Notes under the pieces: generated by a model
Database searches by the model: none
Told to the model about the DNA's origin: nothing
The model's input: only the letters and a program-made list of their open reading frames with translations
Made by a program: the position numbers and the translations under genes
NCBI GenBank assembly: GCA_034660155.1
Contig: JAYEIP010000084.1
Location: forward strand, 1-37,821
Reading direction: 5' to 3'
Origin: Actinomycetota bacterium
GTDB lineage: Bacteria > Actinomycetota > Acidimicrobiia > Spongiisociales > UBA5794
DNA: 37,821 nucleotides
Shown: in pieces, positions 3,197 to 19,901 of the stretch
Position numbering within the stretch: position 1 is the stretch's first letter
Layout of the letters: every line of letters begins with the position of its first letter

Positions 3197-3224
3197 TGGA
3201 CTGCGCCTCGAGGCGTGTTCGCTG

Positions 3225-3680
3225 ATGGCCGGGCACAAGGTGGTGGCCACCAACCGGCGCGCCCGACACGAATACGACATTCTCGACACCTTCGAATGCG
3301 GGATGGTCCTCCGTGGGTCTGAAGTGAAGAGCCTGCGGGATGCCCAGATCCAGCTCAAGGATGCTTACGCGGATATCAGGGATGGCGAGATCTGGCTAGA
3401 AAATGCCCATATCGCTCCGTACCAGTTCGCCCTCGGCGGAGGGCACGATCCAGAACGACCACGCAAGCTTCTGCTCCACCGGCGTGAGATTCAGAAGCTC
3501 GTCGGCAAAGTGAACGAAGCGGGGCTAACCCTTGTACCTCTCCAGGTCTACTTCAAGAACGGCAAAGCCAAAGTCGAGATCGGATTAGCCAGGGGCCGTC
3601 GCACTTACGACAAGCGCCAGAGGATCCGCGAACGGATGGAAAAGCGCGAGATGGACCGAGCCCAACGCCACCGCCGCTAA
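3225..3680 (+). CDS. smpB: SsrA-binding protein SmpB
   Basis: Sequence KVVATNRRARHEYDI...GMVLRGSEVKSLR...IAPY...RPRKLLLHRREI plus a basic C-terminal tail. ATG at 3225. The ORF-track start at 3099 overlaps the M23 gene and is not needed. Confidence 0.92.
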   Translation: MAGHKVVATNRRARHEYDILDTFECGMVLRGSEVKSLRDAQIQLKDAYADIRDGEIWLENAHIAPYQFALGGGHDPERPRKLLLHRREIQKLVGKVNEAGLTLVPLQVYFKNGKAKVEIGLARGRRTYDKRQRIRERMEKREMDRAQRHRR

Positions 3681-3756
3681 GTCAGTACTACCAAGTACCT
3701 AGTACCAGGTACAACCCGACCTCCCTCTTCGCGTTGCATGCTTCGATGCAGGTGCC

Positions 3757-4602
3757 CTAGGTCTCCGTCGCCATCTCTTCGAGCTGGGCGAAGATCTGGT
3801 CCACGTTATCGACATCGAGTGCACCGGCTACGCGCAACACGACTGTTCCCTCGGCGTCGGTGACTGCCCAGAACGGAAATGCAGTCGTTCCGAAGAGCTG
3901 GGCCACCTCGCCGGTCTCGTCAACGATCACGGGAAATGGGAATTGCTCTGAGTCGAGGTAGGGGACCAGTGGATTATCCCGGGTATCGTCGATTGCCGAG
4001 CTAATCGTCACTAGTTCCACGTTGGGAAATCGTGCCGCGTTTGCCGGGTACCACTCTTTGAGCTCCGGCAACTCCGCCTGGCAGTACGGGCACCAGTGGG
4101 CCCATACCATCCAGACACGAGCCTTGCCGTCGGTTGCGGCAAAACTGGCATCAGCGCCGGTGTAGTACTCGGGGCCGCTAATGGTGGCGATCGTCATCGC
4201 GTTCAGGACCGCGGCGTCGTTGGCGCTGTCTTGGAACGGCGGGAGGCTGCCGTCTGCACCCTGGGCGACGACAGCGGTGGGGGAGGCACCCGTCGTGGCC
4301 CCGGAGGCGAGGCGGCTGTCGAGAGCAGCGACCTGAGAGCCGAGAATGTCGACATCGCGGCGCAGCGGCTTGAGATCCGTTACGTCTTCGGCGAGGGCAG
4401 CTACCTCATCGCTGGTGTTGCTCGTTTGCCGTAGTTGGATGATCTGGACTGCCAGGACTGTTACCAGCAATAAGATTACAAGTCCGAGCAGACCCTTGGT
4501 TAAGTCGCGTGTTTTGGGGCTGGCGACGGCGGGTGGGTCGGTCCGCTCGAGGGTATCGAGCTCAGCTTCGAGCGCGTCAGGAGACGCCGTTGTTTCTTCC
4601 AT
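3757..4602 (-). CDS. Membrane-anchored TlpA/ResA-like thiol-disulfide oxidoreductase
   Basis: One N-terminal TM helix (LLGLVILLLVTVLAV), then a C-terminal thioredoxin-fold region with the WCPYC active-site motif. Confidence 0.75.
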   Translation of the reverse strand: MEETTASPDALEAELDTLERTDPPAVASPKTRDLTKGLLGLVILLLVTVLAVQIIQLRQTSNTSDEVAALAEDVTDLKPLRRDVDILGSQVAALDSRLASGATTGASPTAVVAQGADGSLPPFQDSANDAAVLNAMTIATISGPEYYTGADASFAATDGKARVWMVWAHWCPYCQAELPELKEWYPANAARFPNVELVTISSAIDDTRDNPLVPYLDSEQFPFPVIVDETGEVAQLFGTTAFPFWAVTDAEGTVVLRVAGALDVDNVDQIFAQLEEMATET

Positions 4603-4658
4603 GACTGAAGTATGCCCGGGAATGCATATCAGAGCGAGTCGAGTTTGCCCCTCGGCGA

Positions 4659-5201
4659 CTATTTTACCGTTGGCGGCGGTGTTGAGTCGGCGGCCACTTC
4701 AGCCGCCTGTTCGGCTCCGCGCACAGTGACCATCGGTTCTTTGCCCGTTAGGTCGACCAATGTGTGAGCCGGCTCGAGGATGTTGCGCAACTCGTCGATA
4801 GAACCGGCGACACGGGTGGCAATGCCGTCGATCATGACGTTGTTGCCGCCAGGCTCGCCGTCGCGAAAGTCTGTCTTGAGGCCGATGACCCGCTTGTTCA
4901 TTCCCCACGCGATCCCTGCTTCGATACAGGCCCCCTCGTCGGGTACCCGGCCATCAAGGACGAACACCACAAGGTCCGCTTCCTGGACCTCCTTGATGTT
5001 CAAACGGAAGATGTGCTCGCGGGCTTCTTCAATCGTCATGCCGTCCTTTTCCAGCATGTCGGAGAGCAGACCCACGTCTTCCTGGGGGAACCAGGTGGAA
5101 TAGCCCAGTTCATGGATCATCGCAACTACTTGCCGGTTGAAGGCACGTTCGCCTTCGTTGAACAAGCTGGCCGCGTAATAGACGCGAGGCTGGCGTGACA
5201 T
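4659..5201 (-). CDS. Nucleoside 2-deoxyribosyltransferase-like protein
   Basis: N-terminal VYYAASLFNEGERAFN motif and the size (180 aa) are typical of the family as I recall it. Confidence 0.6.
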   Translation of the reverse strand: MSRQPRVYYAASLFNEGERAFNRQVVAMIHELGYSTWFPQEDVGLLSDMLEKDGMTIEEAREHIFRLNIKEVQEADLVVFVLDGRVPDEGACIEAGIAWGMNKRVIGLKTDFRDGEPGGNNVMIDGIATRVAGSIDELRNILEPAHTLVDLTGKEPMVTVRGAEQAAEVAADSTPPPTVK

Positions 5202-5359
5202 TCGATTGTGCCCTTCCGTGGCCTCTTGCGCACCAAGACCACTTGGCTACGCACAGTAGCGGCGAACCTGAGACGACGCACGTCTCTGCTGATGGTGTCG
5301 TTTGGCGGAAAACCCGAGTATCCTTGGGGGGACGGACATATGACCCGTACTCCGTTCGT

Positions 5360-5713
5360 GGGGGTGACATGGTTTCGACTGTGAGGGTTGAGGTGTCGGA
5401 AGCGAGCCGAGGAACCCCGGAGTCCTCGTTAAATTGCCGGGAAACAAATACGTGCCGACAACGAACTGGCACTGGCTGCCTAAATAAGGCGCCTGTCCGC
5501 CCGGGGGGTCCCTGCCTCGCCGGAATCGGGCAACGCAATGCAGGGTGCTCTCGTCCGGGAAGTCAGGACCGACGAGTCAAGACTTAACTGACTAGGGCCT
5601 TGGGAAACTGGCCAGCAGAGTCCCTTGGCCCGAAAACTCGCTGCTGGCTGCGCTCGGAGATGCCGGCGCTGATACCTCATAGGACGGGGGTTCGATTCCC
5701 CCCACCTCCACCA
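5360..5713 (+). ncRNA. ssrA: tmRNA (transfer-messenger RNA)
   Basis: The 5' GGGGGTG pairs with 3' CACCTCC, including a G3:U wobble (alanine identity), followed by ACCA. T-arm is GGGGG-TTCGATT-CCCCC. The internal tag frame GCC GAC AAC GAA CTG GCA CTG GCT GCC TAA (5454-5483) encodes ADNELALAA-stop. smpB lies nearby. Confidence 0.93.
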
Positions 5714-5718
5714 CGATC

Positions 5719-5752
5719 GAAGAAGCCCCGCCAATAACGGCCGGGCTTCTTC
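5719..5752 (+). terminator. Stem-loop terminator after ssrA
   Basis: A perfect 10-bp stem, gaagaagccc (5719-5728) with gggcttcttc (5743-5752), has a 14-nt loop and a T-containing tail (gcattctt). Confidence 0.6.
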
Positions 5753-6000
5753 GCATTCTTGACTGAGGGAATCAGCGGGCTTCGTCGCGTGGCCTTTTTT
5801 CTGTCTGGAGCCTTGTACCCGCGGCCTCAGCCTTCCAAGGGCATTTCTTAGCGACCCTGCCCTCGCGGTCGGGGCCGCTGGTTCGGACAGGGAGGGGATC
5901 CGAGTGTGTGAACCCTCACGACACAAAGGGACCTCCGGCACGTTCCAGTCCTAGCTCCGCGCGATATCCTGTTATCAGAGGCATGGACGTGGAGGTTGAT

Positions 6001-6689: not shown

Positions 6690-9194
6690 CTAAGGCGCCG
6701 ACAGGCTTCCATTCGGATCCTGGCCGTAGGTCCTTTGCCAGGTCGTAAAGGTTGCGCTGCCGCCCTGGTCCCAGACCCAGTAGTCACCCGACGTGTCGGA
6801 GTAGATGTAATCGTTGTAGTTGAAGGTCGCCGTGCTAAAGACTGTGGCGATCCCATTCGTGACCACTCCGGTGTTGCCTGATGCGCTGATGCTATTGCCC
6901 GTCACCGTGGTGCGCAGCGGGGTCAATGAGCCGTACGCTCCGATATTCGAATCGAGGTCGTAGCCGATCACGACTACGGCGTTGTGGTTGCCGACAATGA
7001 TGTTGTTGGTCACGGTCGCGTCGGGGCCGGTAATCTGAACGGCACCGTTATAGAACTTGTCGGTGGCGAGTGCCTTGGTTCCGTTTCCACGGAACTCATT
7101 GGCGTCGATGGTGACCGCATAACTCTGGTCGTGACTGATCCCGGCGTAGTAATTGTCTTCGACAACATTGCCCTGATAAAGGGTGCCGGTGTTGTCCTTG
7201 TATGTCCATAGTCCGTAGCCATGGTTGCCGTGGACAGAATTATTGCTCACCACGAGGTTCTTGGTTGCCAGGAACTTGGCGCCGGCAAAGTAGTAATCAC
7301 CGGACGTTTGATCGTGGTTGTTGTTATCAATCTCATTCCCGTGAATAACAGAGCCGCTGCCACCATCAACCAAGATCCCGAATTGAGCGTTGCGGTGGAT
7401 GTGACTATTGGAGATTGTCGAGCCCCCGCGAATCGACACGCCCGCGTACGCGTTGTCATGAATGTCTGAGTTGGTGATCAGCCATCCGATTCCGTCGGTG
7501 TGGACGGCCCCTTTGCTGGAACCGGAGGTGTAGTTCTTGATCTCGATACCGTCGATGGTGACGTTGTCGACGCTCCCGGAGAAGGCAAAGCCCGTCTCGC
7601 CGAGACCGTCCATCACAGCGCCGGGCGCACCGATGAACTCCTGTCCCGCTTTGGGGAATACCTGTTGTCGTTGGTGGGTGCCTGCCTCGATAAAGATGCG
7701 CGCCCCCGTTGGCTGGGAGTCGGCGACCTCCTGAATGGACCATCCGACGGGAACAACCGCGTCGAATCCGTCGGGAATCTCAGGTGGGGTGTATCCCGGC
7801 GGTGGTGGCGGAGGGCTAGGCAGCGTCAGTGCCCGGCTCAGGAATGACGCCATCTCGCCACGAGTGACGTTGGCATGAGGGCAGAAATCCGAGTTAGTTG
7901 GCGGATTGCACCCGGCCGTGACACCTGCTCCCGCAAGACGGTCAATTGCCGTCTCAAAGATCGAATCGTTGTCGTCGACGAACCAGTCTGGCGTTGTCGC
8001 CGGCAGTGCTAACGCTCGATCCAGGAATGCCGCCATCTCGCCCCTGGTGACAGCTCGATCTGGGCAGAACGCAGAAGCACCGCACCCTTTGGTTATTCCT
8101 GAGGCGGCTAGGGCGTTGATATTCGCCTCGAAGACCGACTTGTTGTCATCGGTGAAGTAATCAGTTGCGGAAGAGGGTAGGTTGAGAGCTCGCACCAGGA
8201 ACGCAGCCATTTGCCCCCTGGTGACCGAGTCGTCCGGGCAGTAGAGATCATTGAGGGGTGGATTGCAGCCCCGTGTTATGTCTGCGAAGGCCAGCTTGGT
8301 GATGTTGGTGTTGTGGACGCTTGCGGCTGTGTCTCGGAACGACCCGATGGGGGCGTCGCCACAGCCGACACGTTCGCTGCTGAGGGCAAGCGAATCGAAG
8401 TCGAATGACAAGCTTCCCGGGGCCTTGGCGTCGCCGCCGTAATACACGTCGAACCAGAAGCTCTTGATGTCGATTCCGCCATCGGCACTGCCACGGAACT
8501 TGAAGTCGTCCTGATAAAAGGCGAGTTGTTCGTCTACCCAGCCTTCGAGGAGCCCATTGGGCTGTCCCGGTGTGTTCATTGCCACGTGGCCCTCCACGCA
8601 GTACCAGGCACCGTGTCGCAGCACGCCGGGCTGCGGATCCCACAGAATCAGGTCTCCGTTGTCCGTAGCCTGATCACGGTGGTAGACGTAGAACCCGATT
8701 TGGGTGAAATCAGAGTCGCGGGCTGTGTAAGTCGGCGAGAAGAACATTCGTGCCGACCACCCCGGCTGGGAGTCGCTGGGTTTGATGTTGTTGCGGGCCG
8801 ATCCTGTGTAGAGGCCAGCAGGCCCGGGAAGCTTGCCACGACCGTAATTGGTGAACCCGTCAGGCACACGCAGGTAATAGCGGAAGTACAACTCCTCTGG
8901 CTCAGGAATCCCCTGGTCTTCGAACTGCCAATGCATCGCCGATCCAAAATGAGAGTTGGCTGGGATCGAGACTTTGATCCCGGTTCCGTCGGATCCATCA
9001 GCAACCGTCGACACCTGATTACGGGGTCCGATATCGGCGTCGAACCAGTCCGCGGCCCAGGTGGTGGGGGTATCGCTAAACGGCTCATCGAGGTAGACGG
9101 TAGGGGCGGCCGTCGCCGGGCCGGTGGCCAGCATGCCGGCGAGAACCAGCGACGAGGCGAAGACGGACACGAGGCGAGTTGAGGGTCGATTCAT
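6690..9194 (-). CDS. Secreted multidomain protein: polysaccharide-lyase-like (concanavalin-type) N-domain, 3x Cys-SLH-like modules, Pro linker, right-handed beta-helix domain
   Basis: Signal peptide MNRPSTRLVSVFASSLVLAGMLATGPATA from ATG at 9194. GKLPGPAGLY...GWSARMFF...GAWYCVEGHV.MN...NGLLEGWVD resembles the Polysacc_lyase family. Three modules span aa 352-524 of the 900-aa ORF. PPPPPP linker. PbH1-like repeats NSDIHDN, NSHIHRN, HGNEIDNN, NNSVHGNHG. Confidence 0.75.
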   Translation of the reverse strand: MNRPSTRLVSVFASSLVLAGMLATGPATAAPTVYLDEPFSDTPTTWAADWFDADIGPRNQVSTVADGSDGTGIKVSIPANSHFGSAMHWQFEDQGIPEPEELYFRYYLRVPDGFTNYGRGKLPGPAGLYTGSARNNIKPSDSQPGWSARMFFSPTYTARDSDFTQIGFYVYHRDQATDNGDLILWDPQPGVLRHGAWYCVEGHVAMNTPGQPNGLLEGWVDEQLAFYQDDFKFRGSADGGIDIKSFWFDVYYGGDAKAPGSLSFDFDSLALSSERVGCGDAPIGSFRDTAASVHNTNITKLAFADITRGCNPPLNDLYCPDDSVTRGQMAAFLVRALNLPSSATDYFTDDNKSVFEANINALAASGITKGCGASAFCPDRAVTRGEMAAFLDRALALPATTPDWFVDDNDSIFETAIDRLAGAGVTAGCNPPTNSDFCPHANVTRGEMASFLSRALTLPSPPPPPPGYTPPEIPDGFDAVVPVGWSIQEVADSQPTGARIFIEAGTHQRQQVFPKAGQEFIGAPGAVMDGLGETGFAFSGSVDNVTIDGIEIKNYTSGSSKGAVHTDGIGWLITNSDIHDNAYAGVSIRGGSTISNSHIHRNAQFGILVDGGSGSVIHGNEIDNNNHDQTSGDYYFAGAKFLATKNLVVSNNSVHGNHGYGLWTYKDNTGTLYQGNVVEDNYYAGISHDQSYAVTIDANEFRGNGTKALATDKFYNGAVQITGPDATVTNNIIVGNHNAVVVIGYDLDSNIGAYGSLTPLRTTVTGNSISASGNTGVVTNGIATVFSTATFNYNDYIYSDTSGDYWVWDQGGSATFTTWQRTYGQDPNGSLSAP
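7821..8339 (-). repeat. Triplet of Cys-containing SLH-like modules (internal position)
   Basis: FRDTAASVH..ITRGCNPPLNDLYCPDDSVTRGQMAAFLVRAL / YFTDDNKSVFE..GITKGCGASAFCPDRAVTRGEMAAFLDRAL / WFVDDNDSIFE..GVTAGCNPPTNSDFCPHANVTRGEMASFLSRAL. Confidence 0.8.
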
Positions 9195-9284
9195 TTTGGA
9201 GTTGTGTGTCGGACAGGCGGAGGATCCGAGGGGTTGCTGGCCTGAAACAGTGATCGGCATTATGGGTTGATTCCTGTAGCTACC

Positions 9285-9314
9285 GGAACCAACCTCGAAA
9301 TCGACCTTTGGTTC
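9285..9314. promoter_or_regulatory. Inverted repeat in a divergent promoter region (candidate operator)
   Basis: GAACCAA (9286-9292) and TTGGTTC (9308-9314) are separated by 15 nt, within the 215-bp gap between two divergent secreted-protein genes. Confidence 0.2.
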
Positions 9315-9409
9315 GTGCAGTTGCTGCCGATAGTTTTTGTTGGGAGACGCGGTGCCATTGCTGCGGCATCGTCGGCTCCAGGTTCTGACCATCTACAGAG
9401 AGATCATCC

Positions 9410-11440
9410 ATGAAGGCCAGCAGGGTTCTCGTATTCCTTCCCGCTTTGATGCTGGTGCTTGCGTCATGTAGCAGTGATTCGGCACCCCCGACCTCGGTTG
9501 TGCAAGCGACGAGCAACACGATCGCTGCTGTCGCTAAGACCACTCAGCCCGAGGCCAGCGAAGCTGTCGGCAACCTCGAGGACGTCCGGGGTGCGATTGT
9601 GAGAATCGTTGCCGAGGGCAGCTTCGCCGACCCCGAGTTTGGCCAGCAATACAATGCTGCCGGGTCGGGTAGCGGCTTCTTTGTCGACTCCGCCGGTATC
9701 GCTGTCACCAACAATCACGTGGTCACCGGTGCCGCTTTCTTGCAGGTCTATGTCGAGGGTGAAGATGAGCCTCGCAACGCCCGAGTCCTGGGCGTCTCCG
9801 AGTGTTCCGATCTTGCTGTGATCGACGTCGAAGGCGACGGCTATCCATTCCTCGAATGGTCTGAAGGGGATCTTGCCGTCGGGACTCAGATTTATGCCGC
9901 AGGGTTTCCACTGGGCGACGAGGAATTCACCCTGCTCGATGGGATCATTTCTAAGGAGAACGCTGATGGCGAGTCGGACTGGGCCTCGATCGACAGTGTG
10001 ATCGAGCATTCTGCCGACACTCTCCCGGGTAGCTCAGGAGGACCGATCGTCACCGAAGATGGCAAGGTCGTAGCCGTCAATTACGCTGGCGATAGCCAGG
10101 GCCAGTCTTACGGGATTGGTCGTGATGAGGCGCTGGCGATTCTCCCCCAACTCATCGACGGTGACGATGTAACCTCCATTGGAATCAACGGTCAGGCGCT
10201 GAGCGACGGTGTGTTCACTGGTATCTGGGTGTCGTCGGTAGCTTCCGGAAGCCCGGCAGACCTGGGTGGTATCCAAAGCGGCGATCTAGTGACTCTTGTT
10301 GAAGGTCTGATCCCGGCGACCGACGGAAGCATGGCCGACTACTGCGACATCCTTCGCTCCCACGCTCCCGGTGACCCTTTGAGTGTTGAGGTCTACCGTT
10401 CGGCAGACGATGTGTTCCTCGAGGGGACCCTCAACACCGACAAGTCACTCGACGTGTCCTTCTCGTTTGAATCGGCTCTTGAGGATGAGGTTGCTGCCGC
10501 CACCGGAATTACAGATCCGGGTACAGCCGGTTACCCCTCCTATGTCAGCATCACGGACGTCAACAACACCATCAGCGTGGACGTTCCAACGGAGTGGGTT
10601 GACTCAGACGTCGAGAGCCTCTGGTTCTATGAAGATGAGGTGGTCGGGGCCTCCGTCAGCGCCGCCACCAACTACACGGATTGGGTCGATGGTTGGCAGA
10701 CGCCCGGCATGTTCTTTGGAGCATCGGCGACGATCTCTTCGTATGAGACGGTCGACTCGATTCTCGACAAGCAAGATTTCTCGTTTGCGTGTACCTACGA
10801 CGGACGTTTCGAGTATGCAGACGTGTATTACGAAGGCGCCTACGACTTGTGGGCGGATTGCGCCGGTGAGGACACGCTCTTTGTTGATCTGGTGGCACAG
10901 CCCCCGGGTTCGAATGTCCTGATGTTGTTACAGATCGTCGTCGTCTCGGATGCAGACCTCGAGGCGCTTGACACGATCCTGAACACCTTTGTTGTCGATG
11001 AAGCGGCGTTGGCCAATCTTGCCGGTGATACGACGGCCGCTCCGCCTGATGCGGGAACGGGTCTGGTCCTGGCGGCCTGGGAGATGTTGCCGGGCGATTG
11101 CTTCGATGACAGCTCAGTCACCTATGCCGATGACGGGACGATTTCGACTGTCACAACGTTGTCCTGCGACACTGCCCACGACAACGAGGTCGTACTTGCA
11201 TACGAGTTCCCGGCTGCACCCTGGCCCGGCGAGGAAGCCGTGTTCGAGAGTCTTGATGCGGTCTGCTCGGCAGCCTGGCCGGACTATGTCGGGGTGCCCT
11301 ATGTGGACAGCGCTCTCTTCTTCACCTATTTCTACCCGACTGAGGCGAACTGGGCGGCCGGCATTCGGACCGGCACCTGCTTTGCGTACGACGGCAATCT
11401 GGCACCGCTGACCGGTAGTGCCTACATGACCGGCCAGTAA
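9410..11440 (+). CDS. Lipoprotein S1C (HtrA/trypsin-like) serine protease with PDZ, an unassigned middle region and a septum-formation-like C-terminal domain
   Basis: Lipobox LVLASC. Triad contexts TNNHVV, DLAVIDV, GSSGGPIV. PDZ-like GIWVSSVASGSPADLGGIQSGDLV. The C-terminus GDCFDD...LSCDTAHDNEVV...AVCSAAW...TGTCFAY resembles the Septum_form family. Confidence 0.8.
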   Translation: MKASRVLVFLPALMLVLASCSSDSAPPTSVVQATSNTIAAVAKTTQPEASEAVGNLEDVRGAIVRIVAEGSFADPEFGQQYNAAGSGSGFFVDSAGIAVTNNHVVTGAAFLQVYVEGEDEPRNARVLGVSECSDLAVIDVEGDGYPFLEWSEGDLAVGTQIYAAGFPLGDEEFTLLDGIISKENADGESDWASIDSVIEHSADTLPGSSGGPIVTEDGKVVAVNYAGDSQGQSYGIGRDEALAILPQLIDGDDVTSIGINGQALSDGVFTGIWVSSVASGSPADLGGIQSGDLVTLVEGLIPATDGSMADYCDILRSHAPGDPLSVEVYRSADDVFLEGTLNTDKSLDVSFSFESALEDEVAAATGITDPGTAGYPSYVSITDVNNTISVDVPTEWVDSDVESLWFYEDEVVGASVSAATNYTDWVDGWQTPGMFFGASATISSYETVDSILDKQDFSFACTYDGRFEYADVYYEGAYDLWADCAGEDTLFVDLVAQPPGSNVLMLLQIVVVSDADLEALDTILNTFVVDEAALANLAGDTTAAPPDAGTGLVLAAWEMLPGDCFDDSSVTYADDGTISTVTTLSCDTAHDNEVVLAYEFPAAPWPGEEAVFESLDAVCSAAWPDYVGVPYVDSALFFTYFYPTEANWAAGIRTGTCFAYDGNLAPLTGSAYMTGQ

Positions 11441-11849: not shown

Positions 11850-12593
11850 GTGGAAGGGACGGGCACCGTGAAGTTGCAAAAGATTGTTATCGGCCTGGCC
11901 GGGGTGGGGCTGCTGCTCATAGGAGCCGTTTGGTTCTTCTTCATCCGAAGCGACGCTCCGCCGGAAGCATCGTTAGAAGATGCGGTCGCTGCCGTTGGTG
12001 AGGATGCCATAGCCGACACCGGGAGCGGGTCGGGTGATTCGATTGGCGCCGATGGGGTTGACGGACTCGATGGGGCATGGGTGGTGGACCAAGGCTTGTC
12101 GTTCGTGGGGTATCGCATCACTGAAGAGCTGGCCAGCATCGGGGCAACAACCGCTGTTGGCCGAACCAGCGACGTGGTCGGCACCCTCACGTTTGCCGGG
12201 ACCCAGGTGACCGAGCTATCGGTGAGTGTCGACATGACGACGTTGCAAAGCGACCGATCCCGCCGGGATTCCGCGATGAGAACCCGGGGACTGGAAACGG
12301 ACACGTTCTCCACTGCAGCTTTCGTGCTGTCCGAGCCAATCGAACTGGGCGCGGCACCACGAGAGGGTGAGACCGTCAATGTCACGGCCGTCGGCGAATT
12401 GACTGTGCACGGGACGGCCAACACCGTCTCGATAGATTTCGAAGGGTCGTTGGTCGAAGGAACGATGGTCGTGGTCGGATCCGCTGATGTAGTTCTCACC
12501 GACTACGCCATAGAGGCCCCGACCGGCTTCTCAGTCGTAAGCATCGCCGACACCGGAACGATCGAACTCCAGCTTGCCTTTGTCCGCGGGTAG
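11850..12593 (+). CDS. Membrane-anchored YceI-like protein
   Basis: N-terminal TM helix, then W.VD...SFVGYRI......G.FAG..V.......V.VDM.TLQSD...RD, typical of YceI. An alternative GTG start at 11868 has a better SD (GGAAGGG). Confidence 0.65.
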   Translation: MEGTGTVKLQKIVIGLAGVGLLLIGAVWFFFIRSDAPPEASLEDAVAAVGEDAIADTGSGSGDSIGADGVDGLDGAWVVDQGLSFVGYRITEELASIGATTAVGRTSDVVGTLTFAGTQVTELSVSVDMTTLQSDRSRRDSAMRTRGLETDTFSTAAFVLSEPIELGAAPREGETVNVTAVGELTVHGTANTVSIDFEGSLVEGTMVVVGSADVVLTDYAIEAPTGFSVVSIADTGTIELQLAFVRG

Positions 12594-12615
12594 GGCGATC
12601 AAACGGCGGTCGTGG

Positions 12616-12803
12616 TTCGGACACCTGCTTAGAAACCCGACGTTTCGGACACCTCCTCAGACCAGGAGTTCGCTTTGCTAACTCCCAAGGTACTCACCCT
12701 CGGTGAGTACCCCTCTACCTCCGGCTGGCGCCGGCGGTACTTTCCCCCCGGAGGGGGGACTGATGCGAAGCGCTTCCCGGCTGGCGTCGGCGGTACTTTC
12801 CCG
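12616..12803 (+). repeat. Mosaic intergenic repeat, copy B (M1-M1'-M2-hairpin-M3-M3')
   Basis: M1 ttcggacacctgcttag (12616-12632). M1' ttcggacacctcctcag (12644-12660). M2 ccaggagttcgctttgctaactcccaaggtactcac (12662-12697). A perfect 10-bp hairpin ggtactcacc/ctc/ggtgagtacc (12689-12711). M3 (12721-12764) and a partial M3 (12777-12803). Confidence 0.75.
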
Positions 12804-12831
12804 CTGAGTGACACCGGAGGGAGGACGCTCC

Positions 12832-14595
12832 CTAGCTGAGGGCTCGTTTGAGGAAGGCTGCCATTTGTTCTCTGGTGACACGGCTGCCGGGGCAGAACAT
12901 GGTGTTGTCCGGGGGGTTGCAGCCTTTGGTGATGCCGGCTGTCGCCAGCTTGGCGATGGCGTCTTCGAAGACGCTGCCGTCATCGTCGATGAAAGTGTTC
13001 CCACCACCGTCATCGGTCAAGTTGAGAGCGCGTACAAGGAATGCGGCCATCTGCTCCCGGGTGACAAGATCGTTGGGGCAGAACATGGTGTTGTCCGGTG
13101 GGTTGCAGCCTTTGGTTACGCCGGCCGTTGCGAGCTTGTCGATGGCATCCTCAAAGATATCGCCATCATCATCGATGAATAGGTTTCCATCGCCCGCATC
13201 TGTGTAACCCAGGGCCCGTACCAAGAATGCGGCCATTTGGCCACGAGTGACAAAGTCGGTCGGGCAATAGCTGTTGTTGTCGCAGCCTTTTGTGATTCCC
13301 GAATCGCCAAGCCACAAGATGTCGGTGAGGAACACGGAGCTGGCGACATCGTCGAAACCGATCAGCTTGATCGTCAAGCCCTCAGCCGTTTCTGCCAGCA
13401 CCTTGAGGATGGTCCCGTGTGCGATGAGTTGCTCACCCTGGTTGAGATCGAAGGTGGCCTCGGTCCCAACCGCAGTCACATGATCGAGCGCGTTGGGGGA
13501 GGGTGGGTAACTGTACGGGCGGGAGGACAAGCCTCCACAAGGCAGGGCGGCAGCCTCCGGAAACGCCTTGCACCATTGCTCGATGTAGTGCGCGCTGACA
13601 CCTTCGAAGTTTGCCGGGATCGGGTCCAGGACCGAGCTGAGCCGAGCGTCGAGGGCAACAAACGCATACTCATAGTCGCTCGGCAGGATCACCATCTGGG
13701 TGCCGGGTATGCCGACGGGGGCCAGGGTCATCTCCGTGATTCCCCCGTCGTAGATCACTACGTCCGCAGGGTCCACCCAACCGGCGCGGTAACGGTTGAA
13801 CGCAAGCGAAGCGTAGGGATCGTCTGCACGACCGAGAAGTTCGCTTGGCATGTTGCCGCTCATGAAATCGATCGGATTGTCGTACTCATCGACCGTTTCG
13901 CCGGAGTAGGAGTGGGGAAAGCTGATCGTGTGACCGATCTCATGCGCCGCGGTGGTGATGTGCTCTGGTCCCCAGGACCCGGCCTTCAGCGAGCCGCCGT
14001 CGACTACTGCCCACCGTGAATTAGTCGGGAACGTCGTTGAGCTGAGGCTCTCACAGTTGTTGCAGTACAACCCGGGTCCGCCGAGTCCAGCATTGAATTG
14101 GTTGTCGAGCACGCCGATCGCAGCACTATCCCCCCAAAGCGGATTGGCTGCAGCTGACATCTTGGCCGCACAGTCGTTGAAACTGTTGGCCTGCGTCGTG
14201 ACAGTTGTCCTCGCAATGAACGTTGGGTTGTAGTCGCCGTCGGACAGTCCGAGAAAATACGAATTGACCTGGTTGTTCAGGGTCATCGTCGCGTTGGCCA
14301 GATTTACGCCGAACGTTGCTCCCGCCCAGGTGCACACATAGACGCCGATCTGGTCAGTTCCCTGTGAGTAGCGTCGCACGTCATTAGGCCACACGACCAA
14401 TCTGAGTGGGTCGCCGGAGAACTCATCAAGTGCCGCAATAGACCGCGCATTGGCATCAAGGATTGGAGCTACGGCATCCGTTTCGGCCGCGTCAAACTCT
14501 GCGTCAGCGAATGGTTGTGGTCCGCCGGCGGCACCTACGGGTGCCGCGACAAGCAGGGACGCTGTGACTAATAGGGCTGCGAAGATCTTACGCAT
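12832..14595 (-). CDS. Secreted metzincin-like zinc metalloprotease with C-terminal triplet of Cys-SLH-like modules
   Basis: Signal peptide MRKIFAALLVTASLLVAAPVGAAG from ATG at 14595 (SD GGAAGGG). HEIGHTISFPH (HExxHxxxxxH, 13912-13944). Three modules at the C-terminus. The ORF-track start at 14670 adds 25 non-signal residues. Confidence 0.75.
   Translation of the reverse strand: MRKIFAALLVTASLLVAAPVGAAGGPQPFADAEFDAAETDAVAPILDANARSIAALDEFSGDPLRLVVWPNDVRRYSQGTDQIGVYVCTWAGATFGVNLANATMTLNNQVNSYFLGLSDGDYNPTFIARTTVTTQANSFNDCAAKMSAAANPLWGDSAAIGVLDNQFNAGLGGPGLYCNNCESLSSTTFPTNSRWAVVDGGSLKAGSWGPEHITTAAHEIGHTISFPHSYSGETVDEYDNPIDFMSGNMPSELLGRADDPYASLAFNRYRAGWVDPADVVIYDGGITEMTLAPVGIPGTQMVILPSDYEYAFVALDARLSSVLDPIPANFEGVSAHYIEQWCKAFPEAAALPCGGLSSRPYSYPPSPNALDHVTAVGTEATFDLNQGEQLIAHGTILKVLAETAEGLTIKLIGFDDVASSVFLTDILWLGDSGITKGCDNNSYCPTDFVTRGQMAAFLVRALGYTDAGDGNLFIDDDGDIFEDAIDKLATAGVTKGCNPPDNTMFCPNDLVTREQMAAFLVRALNLTDDGGGNTFIDDDGSVFEDAIAKLATAGITKGCNPPDNTMFCPGSRVTREQMAAFLKRALS
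12835..13356 (-). repeat. Triplet of Cys-containing SLH-like modules (C-terminal)
   Basis: FDDVASSVF..GITKGCDNNSYCPTDFVTRGQMAAFLVRAL / FIDDDGDIFEDAIDKLATAGVTKGCNPPDNTMFCPNDLVTREQMAAFLVRAL / FIDDDGSVFEDAIAKLATAGITKGCNPPDNTMFCPGSRVTREQMAAFLKRAL. Confidence 0.8.
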
Positions 14596-14729
14596 TGCGG
14601 TGCACCCTTCCGAGGCGGTCTGAGGAACTCTATCGGCATCGGCGTCTGCATGCTTGCACTTAAATGACAAGCCATTGATAGGTGCTTGGTTTTTCGTAGT
14701 TGGTATGAAGAATCAGATTTCGTTGGTGG

Positions 14730-16022
14730 TCAGCCGAGGGCTCTGTGTAAGAACGCTGCCATTTGCTCTCGCGTTACAACGGAGTCGGGGCAATAAAGGT
14801 CGTTGGTTGGGGGGTTGCAGCCGCGGGTGATTCCTGCGGTGCCGAGTTTGTCGATTGCGTCTTCGAAGACGGAGCCGTCATCGTCGGTAAAGAGGTTGCC
14901 GTCGCCGGCGTCGGTGTATCCGAGGGCGCGTACCAGGAAGGCGGCCATCTGCGCTCTGGTTACGTTGTCGTTGGGGCAGAACAGGTCGTTGGTTGGCGGG
15001 TTGCAGCCGCGGGTAACTCCTGCGGTGCCGAGTTTGTCGATTGCGTCTTCGAAGACGGAGCCGTCATCGTCGGTAAAGAGGTTGCCGTCGCCGGCGTCGG
15101 TGTATCCGAGGGCGCGCACCAGGAACGCAGCCATCTGCGCCCTTGTGACCGGATCGCTTGGGCAATACTCAGTGTTGGCTGGAGGATTGCAGCCCTTGGT
15201 GATGCCGGATTCAGCTAGCCAGGTGATGTCGGGCTCGAACACTGACCCGTCGTCGTCGGTGAAATCGACGACACGTGCGATGGTGTTGGTGATGCAGGTA
15301 TCGCACGATGCCGTCGACGAGAACGCATCGAAGACCAGCACCATGTCGCCGGGTCCAAAATCGTAGGTGGTCGCGGCACCCGGCTTCTGACACAAGTCGG
15401 TGTTCGCAGGGTCGGCAGCAACTGAGAAATCGACAAACCAGCCACCGGAGGCATCGGGAAACCCTATCCGACCGCAGTAGTCGGTGAGGTCGCCGGTGCC
15501 TGCCTGGAAGACCTCTTCAGGAACCACCCAGACATCGGCGCGACCCCCCGTTGGAAGTGTCCCGGTCACCACCTCAGTCTGCGAGTTGACTGAAGCGGTT
15601 ACGGAGCTGACGGTGTACTGGAGCGTCTTTGCGTTTGATGTCACCAATACATGGTTGCCGGTCACCAGCGGCCCGGTGTCCACTGCCCAGCGGTCTTGTG
15701 TCGGCACAGTGGTTGTGGTGAAAAGCTGCTTCGACTTCGTCTGGTCGGTCCAGACCGTGAGGGTCGTGGTCTCACCGCTGTAGCCGTATACGACAACCCG
15801 GCAACCGCCAATGTCGAAGGGGGTGATGTGTTTGCACTCGAGTTGGCCCAGGTCGCCGGAGAAGACTCCGACCGTCTTTTGGTCGCCGACACCCTGCGGA
15901 GTGGCGTCTCGCGAAGCTGCAGATGCGGTCGGAGCGGCCAGTGCCGCCACCAGGGCGAGTACCAAGCCGAACCCTATTCCTAGCCTGTTCCTGGCTATCG
16001 CTCCTGCCGGCCGAACACCCAT
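14730..16022 (-). CDS. Secreted protein: beta-rich N-domain of unknown function plus C-terminal triplet of Cys-SLH-like modules
   Basis: ATG at 16022 with AAGGAGGG 5 nt upstream. Signal-like GIGFGLVLALVAALAAPTASAAS. Three modules span aa 254-430. Confidence 0.75.
   Translation of the reverse strand: MGVRPAGAIARNRLGIGFGLVLALVAALAAPTASAASRDATPQGVGDQKTVGVFSGDLGQLECKHITPFDIGGCRVVVYGYSGETTTLTVWTDQTKSKQLFTTTTVPTQDRWAVDTGPLVTGNHVLVTSNAKTLQYTVSSVTASVNSQTEVVTGTLPTGGRADVWVVPEEVFQAGTGDLTDYCGRIGFPDASGGWFVDFSVAADPANTDLCQKPGAATTYDFGPGDMVLVFDAFSSTASCDTCITNTIARVVDFTDDDGSVFEPDITWLAESGITKGCNPPANTEYCPSDPVTRAQMAAFLVRALGYTDAGDGNLFTDDDGSVFEDAIDKLGTAGVTRGCNPPTNDLFCPNDNVTRAQMAAFLVRALGYTDAGDGNLFTDDDGSVFEDAIDKLGTAGITRGCNPPTNDLYCPDSVVTREQMAAFLHRALG
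14733..15263 (-). repeat. Triplet of Cys-containing SLH-like modules (C-terminal); modules 2 and 3 are nearly identical at DNA level
   Basis: Three copies of FTDDDGSVFE.DI..L..(A/S)G(I/V)T(K/R)GCNPP.N..(Y/F)CP....VTR.QMAAFL.RALG. The DNA period is 186 bp, with a ~98-bp exact repeat at 14833-14930 and 15019-15116. Confidence 0.85.
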
Positions 16023-16181
16023 GTGCGCCCTCCTTCAAACCCGGTAAATGCGGAGGCAACGCTGAGCTTAGGGACCTGCGCCAACGCTGCAACGCAAGCC
16101 CCACTCTCCCGTCACCCCCCTACTCCGAGTCAGAATAGTGGTACGAGCCCGTAGGGCCCAGGCCGCTCGGTCAGTGGGCCG

Positions 16182-18368
16182 CTAATTGCGCCACAACGCA
16201 TGCTCGAGATTCATGTCCGGGATATGGGGCAGATGCTCCAGATTGCCGGCGCCGCCAATCTGATAGCAGGTATATGCGAACAGCCATGGGTCTTGGGCCG
16301 AACAGTCGATACGATCCGCTGCCGCGTTCTTCTTGAATTCGAGGTGGAAGCCGGGTTGCACATACTGTCGGCTGGCCAGCTCGTTGGCGGGGCTGAGTAG
16401 ACCATTTCCGTAGGCATCCGTGTAGTACTCACCGGTCGCCAGCGCGTGGTCGGCATCGAATTCGAAATCCGCTCGCCAGCTAGCCATTTGCAGCGTACGT
16501 CGAGTGGCATTCTCCCGATCTGGGTTCCGCACCACGACCGAGTTGCACGTCATGTTGGCGCAGTGTGACATCGGGTTGCGGATGTCGAATGCGTGATCGA
16601 ATTGGACCATCCCAAGGTTTAGCACCTGTGGGGTCTCCTCACGGCTATCCCAGGTCTCGTAGTTGTTCGAACCGGCACCGACGTTCAACCGGCGTCGTTG
16701 CTGGTCGTCCACCTGATTGACCAGGCCGGGCATGCTGTAGCCACAGTTCGTTGGATTGAGAACTCCGCTGCCGGCGTCACCCGTGGCGAACGCAGCGCCG
16801 TAATCGGCCTTGAAACCAACTCCGAACTCCTCTTTGCCGTCCAGGTCGTATACCGACACGTAGAGCGTATGGAGCTGGGAGCAAACCCGCCGGCCGGACG
16901 AGGTGCCGGAGTGGACGATGAAACGAACCCAGTGGTTACCGGTCATGTCTTTGAAGATGAATTCCTTGAAACCCATGTTCGGTTCGTTCTGAGGGACATT
17001 CGATGCGACGTACTCGTAGGGGATCAAGGGCGTTCCCGGTATCAACGCTGGATTCGACCCATGCTCGTGGCCGAAGTAGCACCAGTACACGGGGTCGATT
17101 TGTGGATGCCATGTGTTGTAGGTGCCACCGTCAGGCCCAACCGTGGTGTGCAAATCGTGCACCCAAGCGGGGCAGGGTGTGTTGGCGGCCGCCGGGCTAA
17201 ATCCGTCGGGAGCAGGAGGTGCTGTGGTCGGGTTGCCGGAGGACTCGGCGAGCAGGATGAGGTACATCTCACGCCACTCGGTCGTGTACTCGACAGTCCC
17301 GAGCTGCACTGGACCAGCGGGGAGGTTCTTCTCATAGACGGGGTGCAGATCCCCATCGATCGCAACGGATCCGCCTTCCTCCCAGTCGGACAGCCAGCTG
17401 GGGAGTGGGAAATCGTCACGCCAAACGATGGCCACCCGGGCTGATCGGTTGAGCGTGAAGTTCATCCAATCGTTACGGGCTCCAGTGTTCTTGAACTCCC
17501 AGCGGGTCGAAGGCGACAGCACATCCCACCCGCCATACCGTCCCGGGCTGTCTACCGTCTGCGTACGGTCCGGATCGGGCTCGATATCGAGTCCCTTGAT
17601 CAAGCCGCGCGGCCAGTACTGCATGTCGTCGGTGTAGACGCCGTCAACCCCGTCTTGTTTGCGGATGACGTGGTACCGAGCGACGAGTGCCATATCTGCG
17701 TCGTCTACAGCAAATCCCGCTGGAGGTGCGACCGGCAGGTCCAGCGCTCTGGTCAAGAATGTTGCCATTTCGGCGCGGGTCAGGGTGTTATCCGGACAGA
17801 ATCTCGTGTTGGCTGGGGGATTGCAGCCTTTGGTGATCCCGGCTGTGGCTAGCTTCTCGATGTCACTCTCGAAGATTGAGTCGTTGTCGTCCGTGAAGTC
17901 GATCCCGGAGTCGCTGGCAGTCAGGCCGAGGGCGCGAACCAGGAACGCGGCCATCTGCCCACGGCTTACGGTGCTGTTGGGGCAGAATTGTGTGTTGGCC
18001 GGGGGATTGCAGCCTTTGGTGATCCCGGCCGTGGCCAGTTTCTCGATATCAGCTTCGAATATCGATGAGTTGTCGTCGGTGAAGTCGACTGAGCCCGCGG
18101 CCGACAGGCCAAGACCTCGAACGAGGAATGCTGCCATTTCTCCTCTAGTGACGTTGCGGTCGGGGCAGAAGTCGGTGGCGAACGGCGGGTTGCATCCCGA
18201 GGTGATGCCCGCATTGGAGACAGCCTCAATAGCCTGTTCGTGAAGATTGCCGTTGTCGTCGTTGAAGCCCTGCCCTGCAATGGCTGTCTGCGGGATGACC
18301 ATGATCGTGACGAGCACCATGAGTGCCATCGCTGCGCGAGTTAGGCGTGGAACGCGCTGCAATTTCAT
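16182..18368 (-). CDS. Secreted protein: N-terminal triplet of Cys-SLH-like modules plus ~510-aa Cys/His-rich domain of unknown function
   Basis: ATG at 18368 (SD-like GAGG 9 nt upstream; the ORF-track GTG at 18386 is the alternative). Signal MKLQRVPRLTRAAMALMVLVTIMVIPQTAIA. Three modules, then an unassignable C-terminal region. Confidence 0.75.
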   Translation of the reverse strand: MKLQRVPRLTRAAMALMVLVTIMVIPQTAIAGQGFNDDNGNLHEQAIEAVSNAGITSGCNPPFATDFCPDRNVTRGEMAAFLVRGLGLSAAGSVDFTDDNSSIFEADIEKLATAGITKGCNPPANTQFCPNSTVSRGQMAAFLVRALGLTASDSGIDFTDDNDSIFESDIEKLATAGITKGCNPPANTRFCPDNTLTRAEMATFLTRALDLPVAPPAGFAVDDADMALVARYHVIRKQDGVDGVYTDDMQYWPRGLIKGLDIEPDPDRTQTVDSPGRYGGWDVLSPSTRWEFKNTGARNDWMNFTLNRSARVAIVWRDDFPLPSWLSDWEEGGSVAIDGDLHPVYEKNLPAGPVQLGTVEYTTEWREMYLILLAESSGNPTTAPPAPDGFSPAAANTPCPAWVHDLHTTVGPDGGTYNTWHPQIDPVYWCYFGHEHGSNPALIPGTPLIPYEYVASNVPQNEPNMGFKEFIFKDMTGNHWVRFIVHSGTSSGRRVCSQLHTLYVSVYDLDGKEEFGVGFKADYGAAFATGDAGSGVLNPTNCGYSMPGLVNQVDDQQRRRLNVGAGSNNYETWDSREETPQVLNLGMVQFDHAFDIRNPMSHCANMTCNSVVVRNPDRENATRRTLQMASWRADFEFDADHALATGEYYTDAYGNGLLSPANELASRQYVQPGFHLEFKKNAAADRIDCSAQDPWLFAYTCYQIGGAGNLEHLPHIPDMNLEHALWRN
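17739..18266 (-). repeat. Triplet of Cys-containing SLH-like modules (N-terminal)
   Basis: FNDDNGNLHEQAIEAVSNAGITSGCNPPFATDFCPDRNVTRGEMAAFLVRGL / FTDDNSSIFEADIEKLATAGITKGCNPPANTQFCPNSTVSRGQMAAFLVRAL / FTDDNDSIFESDIEKLATAGITKGCNPPANTRFCPDNTLTRAEMATFLTRAL. Confidence 0.8.
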
Positions 18369-18548
18369 TCGAGTGATCCTCTTCACCGCCGCTACATACT
18401 GTGTTCGCTAGCCACGCAGCGTAGCGATCCGCTCCGAAACCACAACAGGTTCCTGAGATCTAGTGTAAGCAACTCCCCGTTCCTACCCGCAAACTTTTGT
18501 CAATCCCCGGTGGTCCCAACGCGTATTGGCTGCCCCTATTGTCACCTT

Positions 18549-19901
18549 ATGAGCACCACTTTCCCCGACGGCTTCAGTTGGGGCGTCGCAACATCCGCAT
18601 ATCAAATAGAAGGTGGTCGCTTCCAGCAGGGGAAGGGCGAATCCATCTGGGATCGATTTGCCGACACCGGCCGGATGACTGACAGCGGAGACGTTGCGTG
18701 TGATCATTTCCATCGCTGGCGCGGCGACATAGCCTTGATGGCGGAACTCGGGGTTACCTCCTATCGCTTCTCTACATCGTGGACTCGAATAGTCCCCGAT
18801 GGCGTCGGCAAGGTGAACCAGGCTGGCCTCGACTTCTACAGCCAATTGGTGGACGAGATGCTCGCCAAAGGCATCACGCCATGGCTCACGCTCTACCACT
18901 GGGACCTCCCCCAGGATCTGCAAGATAGTGGGGGCTGGCTTAACCGGGACACCGTGGATGCGTTCGCGAGGTATGCCGATGTTGTCAGCGAGGCGCTGGG
19001 GGACAGGGTCAAGAACTGGATAACGCAGAACGAACCCTGGGTGTCCGCTCACCTCGGTCACGGAATCGGTATGTTCGCTCCGGGGATTGCCGACTTCGCT
19101 TCGGCGCTCCTGGCCGGGCACCATCTGCTGTTGTCGCACGGTCGGGCGGTGCCGTACATCAGGGCCAACTCGGCTGACGCCCGAGTAGGGATCGCCTTGG
19201 ATTGTCGGCCGTCACGCCCGGGGTCGGCTGATCAGGCCGACATAGTGGCCAATCGGATCCACGACGGGTTTCGCAATCGCTGGTTCCTTGACCCCGTGTT
19301 CGGCCGGGGGTATCCCAACGACACGATCAAGGTGGTCGAGGACCGTGCCATCTTCGACGGTCCGGCGCTGCCGTATGTTCGGTCGGGCGACATCGAAGAA
19401 ATCGCGGCGCCGATCGACTTCCTCGGTCTGAATTACTACAGCAGTGTTGCGATCTATGCCGGGGATGAAGATGGCGACGATGCGGTTCTGCCCATGGGTC
19501 CGGATCAACCCGAGGGGTACACCGAGATGGGATGGGAGATCACCCCCGAAGCTCTAACCAGGTATCTGGAATACCTCAACACGGAATACTCGCCTAATGA
19601 GATAGTGATCACAGAGAATGGCGCCAGCTATTCCGACGGTGTGGACGCAGACGGATCCGTCCACGATCAACGGCGTATCGATTACCTGGCGAGCCATATA
19701 CGGGCCACTGCCGACGCGTTGGATTCGGGCGTTCCGGTTCGCGGCTACTTCGTGTGGAGTCTGCTCGACAACTTGGAATGGGTCGCAGGATTCAGCCAAC
19801 GATTCGGGATCGTCTGGGTCGATCACGCAACCGGAGAGCGAATCCCCAAAGACAGCTACCGCTGGTTCCAAAGAGTCATCGCAGATGGGCTACCGAAGTA
19901 G
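18549..19901 (+). CDS. GH1 family beta-glucosidase
   Basis: FPDGFSWGVATSAYQIEGG, acid/base TQNEPW, nucleophile ITENGA, and WSLLDNLEW near the C-terminus. ATG at 18549 has no obvious SD. TATTGT lies 6 nt upstream, so the mRNA may be leaderless. Confidence 0.9.
   Translation: MSTTFPDGFSWGVATSAYQIEGGRFQQGKGESIWDRFADTGRMTDSGDVACDHFHRWRGDIALMAELGVTSYRFSTSWTRIVPDGVGKVNQAGLDFYSQLVDEMLAKGITPWLTLYHWDLPQDLQDSGGWLNRDTVDAFARYADVVSEALGDRVKNWITQNEPWVSAHLGHGIGMFAPGIADFASALLAGHHLLLSHGRAVPYIRANSADARVGIALDCRPSRPGSADQADIVANRIHDGFRNRWFLDPVFGRGYPNDTIKVVEDRAIFDGPALPYVRSGDIEEIAAPIDFLGLNYYSSVAIYAGDEDGDDAVLPMGPDQPEGYTEMGWEITPEALTRYLEYLNTEYSPNEIVITENGASYSDGVDADGSVHDQRRIDYLASHIRATADALDSGVPVRGYFVWSLLDNLEWVAGFSQRFGIVWVDHATGERIPKDSYRWFQRVIADGLPK

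Follow-up and report, generated by a model that had tools for sequence, protein, structure and literature searches.

Are the repeated two-cysteine modules encoded by an Acidimicrobiia contig a new means of displaying proteins at the cell surface, or a variant of an anchoring system that is already known? The question is raised by a 37,821-nucleotide stretch of DNA from an Actinomycetota bacterium (contig JAYEIP010000084.1 of assembly GCA_034660155.1, forward strand; hereafter "the window"), in which four minus-strand genes, designated A (12832–14595), B (14730–16022), C (16182–18368), and D (6690–9194), each code for a protein that has a signal peptide and exactly three tandem modules of ∼60 residues. 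An earlier reading of the sequence alone (the sequence-only reading) had called these modules "SLH-like," after the S-layer homology (SLH) domain, and had proposed a candidate novel cell-surface display system. Our analysis shows that they are bona fide SLH domains arranged as four canonical three-domain units. What the region encodes is very likely the SLH wall anchor already known, in a form specific to the lineage and with a loop probably closed by a disulfide, and not a new surface-display system.

Results

The three-module architecture of each protein was established from open reading frames (ORFs), a motif scan, and an alignment, and the consensus proposed by the sequence-only reading was reproduced by the latter two. 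A hidden Markov model built from the modules and run over all six-frame ORFs of the window found exactly 12 of them, and none in reversed-sequence controls. The two cysteines do not vary in any of the 12 modules, and neither do F1, D3, G24, P32, R38, and M41. Eight residues separate the two cysteines in ten modules, and five in the remaining two, A1 and D2. As had been described, the placement of the triplet varies: A and B carry it at the C-terminal end, C at the N-terminal end, and D in an internal position. In A the triplet spans 12835–13356 (A1, 13207–13356, with the short C-x5-C loop; A2, 13021–13179; A3, 12835–12993), in B 14733–15263 (B1, 15105–15263; B2, 14919–15077; B3, 14733–14891), in C 17739–18266 (C1, 18108–18266; C2, 17925–18083; C3, 17739–17897), and in D 7824–8339 (D1, 8181–8339; D2, 8007–8156, again with a C-x5-C loop; D3, 7824–7982), all on the minus strand.

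We scored the triplets against the Pfam SLH family (PF00395; PROSITE PS51272), for which the gathering cut-off is 20.8 bits. All four exceeded it, with 54.6 bits for A, 44.3 bits for B, 43 bits for C, and 37 bits for D. In the B triplet, residues 21–182, covering all three modules, align to the SLH portion of Bacillus anthracis Sap (PDB code 3PYW, E = 5.5e-5). An AlphaFold2 model of the same triplet, built on a 106-sequence alignment, contains two helices per module and was predicted with high confidence (pLDDT, predicted local distance difference test, 93.7; pTM, predicted template modeling score, 0.87). When this model was compared with the PDB using Foldseek, the top 15 matches consisted solely of SLH trimers (3PYW, 6BT4, and the SpaA structures 7SV3 and 6CWH), the best being 3PYW with template modeling (TM) scores of 0.78/0.81 and a root-mean-square deviation (RMSD) of 2.3 Å over 176 columns. 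Below the trimers came an S-layer cytochrome and then noise, the next non-SLH match having E > 0.5. Public annotation agrees, in that the NCBI name for protein C, shared by several of its homologues, is "S-layer homology domain-containing protein," and PF00395 is precomputed on nearly all of the best 120 of more than 4,214 homologues. Because the Pfam threshold is passed, the triplet aligns to Sap, and the predicted fold is that of an SLH trimer, the modules are SLH domains and not merely SLH-like. The sequence-only reading was right that their layout and their occurrence in threes parallel the SLH domain; its suggestion of a novel system does not survive the comparison.

We next asked what distinguishes these modules from canonical SLH domains. 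The ligand contacts defined experimentally in SpaA are SLH-Trp13, SLH-Gly29 (the last Gly of GIIxG), and the TRAE motif's SLH-Arg43, and a backbone flip of SLH-Gly29 is needed for ligand binding (PMC6081394). We followed these positions in the window and in 80 related loci (830 kb of DNA with 139 SLH ORFs and 394 modules). SLH-Gly29, which corresponds to the invariant G24, is retained in 387 of the 394 related modules, and SLH-Arg43, corresponding to R38, in 386. The fourth position of the TR motif is Gln or Glu, comparable to the TRAQ of SpaA. At SLH-13 the consensus Trp is replaced, by Phe in 10 of the 12 window modules and by His in C1 and D1, with an aromatic side chain kept in most modules. 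The alignment to Sap places Cys1 at SLH-30, directly after the flipping Gly29, and Cys2 at SLH-36, between a conserved aromatic residue and Pro. In A1 and D2 the loop is precisely as long as the canonical G-x7-P loop, and the common form differs by a three-residue insertion (NPP) between the two cysteines. Hence the central segment is not "replaced," as had been claimed, but carries two substitutions and a small insertion in the loop that lines the groove. The two-Cys form, defined by the Cys pair, the three-residue insertion, and Phe or His at SLH-13, is lineage-specific and typical of Acidimicrobiia. In the limited collection of papers searched, none was found that links SLH domains to Acidimicrobiia taxa, and the variant may be described nonetheless. 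On S-layer homology, disulfides, Actinobacteria, and CsaB, this collection yielded only general SLH/CsaB papers, and no description of the variant was found.

Conservation of the Cys pair extends well beyond the window. Both cysteines are present in 300 of 301 modules from the best 120 homologues, in 386 of 394 modules from the 80 related loci, and in 442 of 446 modules from 138 representatives of 50%-identity clusters, so that the pair is retained in >98% of the ∼1,140 modules surveyed. The remaining 8 modules of the related loci are gapped in the alignment at one Cys column or at both, and no full-length module there is missing just one Cys. Among the best 120 homologues, loop length (8, 7, or 5 residues) varies only between the two cysteines. 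The number of cysteines after the signal region is even in all four window proteins (12, 12, 14, and 8), and cysteines outside the SLH modules of their relatives are likewise biased toward even numbers (even:odd counts of 80:17, 92:16, and 75:23; p from 3e-11 to 7e-8). Since the cysteines co-occur, insertions and deletions fall only between them, and Cys numbers favor even values, we consider it likely that the pair forms an intradomain disulfide that would staple the groove-lining loop. An even-Cys signature has been taken to indicate disulfides in exported proteins of aerobic Actinobacteria, while Firmicutes exclude Cys (Daniels et al., PMC2823432). A disulfide would thus suit Actinobacteria, in which exported cysteines are oxidized; most study of SLH domains has instead been in Firmicutes, which exclude Cys.

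A separate observation concerns the gene at 3757–4602 (minus strand), which encodes a 281-residue protein with a C-terminal AhpC-TSA/Redoxin/thioredoxin-like domain and an N-terminal extension of ∼145 residues. Judged from its domain content, this protein could be an exported thiol-disulfide oxidoreductase of the TlpA/ResA type, relevant to the oxidative folding of Cys-rich exoproteins.

A profile of the triplet retrieved 5,612 clusters at 50% identity with E≤1e-30, 35,444 at 1e-10, and 91,603 at 1e-3, the two looser tiers representing the wider SLH family. Scanning of genomes confirmed at least 576 loci, and the named records are overwhelmingly metagenome-assembled genomes (MAGs) of Acidimicrobiia or Actinomycetota, with many loci per genome. 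Exactly three modules are present in 123 of the 139 SLH ORFs of the related loci and in 126 of the 138 cluster representatives. In these two surveys the triplet is C-terminal in 63 and 87 proteins, N-terminal in 35 and 41, and internal in 2 and 3, respectively; a further 8 proteins of the first survey are stand-alone triplets. Fusion partners in relatives include GSDH, M15 peptidase, and SpoIID domains, along with others whose Pfam accessions we take to be PKD, plastocyanin-like, cadherin-like, and FN3 domains. This varied placement and the many partners bear out the view of the module as a portable anchoring unit, which is known behavior for SLH domains. More than one SLH gene is found in 35 of the 80 related loci. 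One of these loci (L045, contig CAVUUV010000002.1) is a dense array, with nine ORFs containing two-Cys SLH modules inside 12.7 kb.

To look for enzymes that could supply the classical SLH ligand, we searched the window and the 830 kb of related loci for pyruvyl transferases, using Escherichia coli WcaK as the seed. The search yielded a fusion of a GT2 glycosyltransferase domain with a PF04230 domain (60.8 bits), encoded at 3164–5791 of locus L040 (MAG MFD05684.bin.2.275, contig CAWDDT010000007.1). The best NCBIfam pyruvyltransferase model for this protein is CsaB (TIGR03609, 79.5 bits), compared to 21 bits for WcaK. Within L040:627–11791 the gene order is a glycosyltransferase, the GT2+CsaB-like fusion, and then directly three two-Cys SLH genes (GSDH-like, M15 peptidase, and SpoIID). 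The pyruvyl transferase domain has ∼50 close homologues, several of them in Acidimicrobiia MAGs. From its gene content, L040 appears to be a candidate for a locus that, in Acidimicrobiia, links the pyruvylation of a wall polymer with wall enzymes anchored by SLH domains. The SLH/CsaB pair has been reported to be retained in "a few examples within Actinobacteria" (preprint 10.1101/2021.05.31.446380). Together with the L040 gene order, this retention favors, but does not prove, the classical mode in which SLH domains bind a pyruvylated polymer.

The domains carried by the triplets are diverse. Protein A had been described as metzincin-like. Its HEIGHTISFPH segment does have the HExxHxxxxxH spacing, but family matches are below threshold (Reprolysin_3, E = 0.014; the M6 model TIGR03296, 23 bits versus 110.8), and we refer to a putative Zn-metalloprotease domain. 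The assignment of protein D as a lyase with a beta-helix holds, with Pfam matches to polysaccharide lyase 14 (PL14, 42 bits) and Beta_helix (68.4 bits); its internal triplet is accompanied by the PL14 domain and a right-handed beta-helix. The beta-rich N-terminal domain of B gave no Pfam or PDB sequence match, and a search of the passenger domains of A, B, and C against PDB sequences gave no meaningful match.

The passenger of C (16185–17636, minus strand; 484 residues) is arguably the least-known item of the region. It consists of a beta-sandwich followed by a His/Cys-rich core and has no Pfam match. In its 370 homologues the fusion partner is either the two-Cys SLH triplet or some other Pfam module, mainly PF00353 (presumably RTX calcium-binding repeats) and also PF17957 and PF07691 (presumably Big_7 and PA14). 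Among the invariant residues are H160, H177, D181, H190, H192, H242, and H256, as well as four cysteines. An AlphaFold2 model was obtained at a pLDDT of 93.2, and in a fold search only the first ∼130 residues, the beta-sandwich, matched PDB entries (GH2, 6HPD, E = 2.9e-5; GH138, 6HZE). For the core, this search returned no credible PDB neighbor. Beta-propeller-like matches were also returned for this passenger and were rejected as noise (RMSD >20 Å). The domain may represent a new family of extracellular metalloenzymes.

We assigned likely translation starts for the four genes. The ORF of A spans 12832–14670 (612 residues), and its true start is likely M26 (14595), where a signal-peptide-like segment begins. 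B encodes 430 residues, with a signal peptide from M1. The ORF of C spans 16182–18386 (734 residues), with a likely start at M7 (18368) that agrees with the 728-residue NCBI product, and that of D spans 6690–9392 (900 residues), with a likely start at M67 (9194). By a heuristic assessment only, all four N-termini are signal-peptide-like, with a basic n-region, a hydrophobic core (12-residue hydropathy of 2.3–3.0), and A-x-A sites. A promoter and terminator scan of 12500–18700 revealed no signal exceeding shuffled expectation.

The sequence-only reading had further inferred ongoing gene conversion from a high identity of the modules' DNA. In pairwise comparison, their nucleotide identity is in fact 50%–84%, with a median of ∼60%. 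Exact tracts longer than 30 nucleotides occur only inside gene B (60 and 48 nucleotides), and those between genes do not exceed 20. We compared the modules with those of a related MAG (GCA_008633255.1, locus L082), in which the order GltBD-GH1-C-A-YceI-HtrA-D is syntenic with the window and the orthologue of A is 62% identical. All compared modules are 75%–91% identical to their L082 positional orthologues and 53%–83% identical to paralogues; for the modules of C and D, the corresponding values are 77%–91% and 53%–77%. The short loops of A1 and D2 and the His13 of C1 and D1 are position-specific features conserved in L082. Widespread conversion is therefore rejected by the identities, the tracts, and the orthologue matches. 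Local homogenization has weak support at two places: B2 and B3 are 84% identical and have the 60-nucleotide exact tract in common, and A2 and A3 are 83% identical to each other, exceeding their 77% and 75% identity to the L082 orthologues. An orthologue of D is present in L082. Gene B, found between C and A in the window, has no counterpart in the syntenic interval L082:10001–14314. Because of this absence and its long exact internal repeats, B may be a recent insertion or a product of duplication.

The remaining genes of the window are of a housekeeping nature, encoding FtsEX, M23 peptidases, a transfer-messenger RNA (tmRNA), an HtrA-like protease, YceI, GH1, an MFS transporter, GltBD, an MMPL protein, and an MprF-like protein, and base composition is flat and GC-rich (∼60% GC). 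The GH1 gene is adjacent to the SLH genes, as had been pointed out, but its position is incidental. A functional link was considered and rejected on the grounds that the gene lacks a signal peptide, lies on the opposite strand, and belongs to a conserved housekeeping neighborhood. The HtrA-like protein (9410–11440, plus strand) combines a trypsin-like protease with PDZ domains and a C-terminal "Septum_form" domain (PF13845); its gene is placed between SLH genes D and A, an arrangement kept in L082. The tmRNA gene at 5360–5713 (plus strand; Rfam RF00023, 165.6 bits; ARAGORN tag peptide ADNELALAA) accounts for the scarcity of ORFs upstream of gene D. Given the conserved synteny with L082 and the flat composition, we also considered and rejected a mobile island downstream of this gene.

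Discussion

Our preferred reading is that A, B, C, and D are exoproteins held at the wall by SLH triplets of a two-Cys type. Family membership, the fold as a model, conservation, and distribution are results of the analysis; we infer wall binding, the identity of the ligand, and the disulfide, and the sequence of events can be pictured as follows. Each triplet would adopt the pseudo-threefold fold of B. anthracis Sap and Paenibacillus alvei SpaA, the "three-pronged spindle," and, after Sec export, would hold its passenger domain on the cell wall non-covalently. The ligand would be an anionic secondary cell-wall polymer (SCWP), most probably pyruvylated, sitting in grooves lined by the GIxxG glycine (SLH-Gly29) and the arginine of TR-x-[QE] (SLH-Arg43). 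Displayed in this way would be the putative metalloprotease of A, the beta-rich domain of B and the His-rich domain of C, both unknown, and the PL14 lyase of D with its beta-helix.

Several observations weigh against this reading and have to be set beside the alternatives that they favor. Taken singly, the modules score weakly as SLH domains, with 11 of the 12 matching (best E = 6.4e-7) and one undetected, and the precomputed Pfam SLH calls for the L082 orthologues of C, A, and D are only "weak" or "faint," all of which points to real divergence from the canonical family. These modest scores, the lack in NCBIfam of a model specific to the two-Cys subfamily, and the missing link between SLH domains and Acidimicrobiia in the limited set of papers searched are what one would cite for a novel, non-SLH display module that mimics the SLH layout. 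Such mimicry is barely credible for a triplet that aligns over its full length to Sap, whose predicted fold matches SLH trimers only, and which conserves the ligand-binding Gly and Arg, the more so as all four proteins pass the Pfam gathering cut-off and public annotation is already SLH. Other observations bear on the ligand. No pyruvyl transferase is encoded in the 37.8-kb window (the scope being this contig), the search of 830 kb of related DNA found a single PF04230 gene, that of L040, and the protein it encodes scores far short of the 213-bit equivalog cut-off on the CsaB model. Moreover, position SLH-13, which as Trp stacks on N-acetylmannosamine (ManNAc) in SpaA and Sap, is never Trp (Phe in 320, His in 53, and Tyr in 8 of 394 modules), so the ligand may differ. 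The SLH fold could accordingly have been kept for a ligand other than 4,6-pyruvylated ManNAc, either another anionic wall glycopolymer or peptidoglycan, as a new specificity in Acidimicrobiia. The groove loop is remodeled by the insertion and by the Cys pair beside the flipping Gly29, in the actinobacterial pyruvylated wall polymers described to date the pyruvate sits on sugars other than ManNAc (PMC6801904), and SLH domains of the OmpM type in Negativicutes bind polyamine-modified peptidoglycan (preprint 10.1101/2021.05.31.446380). On the other hand, the two residues that hold the pyruvate carboxylate, Arg43 and Gly29, hardly vary at any of the three triplet positions, most modules keep an aromatic side chain at position 13, and a CsaB-like pyruvyl transferase adjoins SLH genes in L040. 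A different ligand is thus unlikely, and it is the missing Trp13 that keeps the idea alive.

Two further alternatives accept the SLH fold and concern the cysteines and the role of the proteins. The Cys pair might serve as a metal site, a redox switch, or a source of intermolecular crosslinks that polymerize surface proteins, with no structural disulfide. Its invariance, and the position of Cys1 next to the ligand-gating Gly29, would suit such a role, but two cysteines by themselves are a weak basis for a metal site, both members of the pair lie strictly within one module and always occur together, loop insertions and deletions are confined between them, and the even-Cys bias of the passenger domains speaks for ordinary oxidative folding (PMC2823432). 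We therefore regard the non-disulfide roles as highly improbable. It is also conceivable that the four proteins are subunits of an S-layer lattice and not wall-anchored enzymes, since genuine S-layer proteins, Sap and SpaA among them, are anchored by SLH triplets and the passengers of B and C have no assigned function. Against this stand the enzyme-type domains of A and D, the many different SLH proteins with varied catalytic domains in related genomes (up to nine in a single 12.7-kb locus), and the lack of any sign of high abundance or of lattice-forming domains among the four; a lattice role is accordingly scarcely plausible.

Wall-anchored enzymes held by SLH triplets have clear precedents. 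SLH triplets that anchor assorted exoenzymes are a textbook use of the domain, as in the Firmicutes xylanases, pullulanases, and cellulosome anchors of Clostridia and Thermoanaerobacterium. The proteins described here resemble those enzymes in having a portable triplet at either end of varied catalytic domains, with non-covalent wall display, and differ in coming from Actinomycetota (Acidimicrobiia), in the two-Cys variant, and in partner domains that include uncharacterized families. That SLH domains are used "also to anchor other proteins" has been stated before (preprint 10.1101/2021.05.31.446380).

The structural likeness is greatest to the Sap trimer (3PYW; 6BT4 with a pyruvylated SCWP unit), which has the same three tandem SLH domains with the GIxxG Gly and the TR-motif Arg. 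Identity to Sap is ∼24%, and the present modules differ by their cysteines at SLH-30 and SLH-36, the usual three-residue insertion, Phe or His in place of Trp13, and an Arg in all three modules; their passengers are enzymes or unknown domains, not an S-layer lattice domain. The SpaA trimer of P. alvei (6CWC–6CWR and 7SV3–7SV6; PMC6081394, PMC8942822) is similar in fold (TM ∼0.72/0.80) and in its TRAE/TRAQ-type variation, which here takes the forms TRGQ, TREQ, TRAQ, TRGE, TRAE, and SRGQ. Conservation of Gly29 is consistent with the backbone-flip mechanism of SpaA. However, SpaA has a degenerate motif (TVEE) and a dead groove, whereas all three modules here keep the Arg, and the Trp platform is missing. 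Because Cys1 directly follows the flipping Gly, the loop, mobile in SpaA, would be restrained by a disulfide here. The OmpM/Slp-type outer-membrane tethers of diderm Terrabacteria (PMC10628300) share a wall-recognizing SLH domain, but OmpM combines a single SLH domain with a coiled coil and a porin beta-barrel, in contrast to the triplets described here. A Pfam scan of A–D found no porin or barrel family, and the passengers are enzyme-like or unknown soluble domains.

No new display principle is revealed by this locus. A bolder proposal would be that the two-Cys, Phe13 triplet is the main protein-to-wall anchor of Acidimicrobiia and has diverged in function, with a groove loop that is locked or redox-sensitive and a specificity retuned by the change of Trp to Phe or His. 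We think this distinctly unlikely; if it were true, anchoring would depend on oxidative folding and on a wall polymer not yet described, other than 4,6-pyruvyl-ManNAc.

Acidimicrobiia are an abundant, largely uncultured class of actinobacteria. The "weak" and "faint" Pfam calls indicate that per-domain pipelines can under-call the two-Cys subfamily, and a dedicated profile would improve its annotation. Such a profile would flag thousands of wall-anchored exoproteins in Acidimicrobiia metagenomes and would open a view of their surface proteome, including lyases, proteases, wall-remodeling enzymes, and several unknown domains. The family also offers an example of a Cys-free wall-binding fold, studied in Firmicutes, that has gained a conserved and probable disulfide in a phylum that oxidizes its exported proteins. 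Placed beside the ligand-gating Gly29, this probable covalent staple would constitute a natural experiment on the mechanism described for SpaA.

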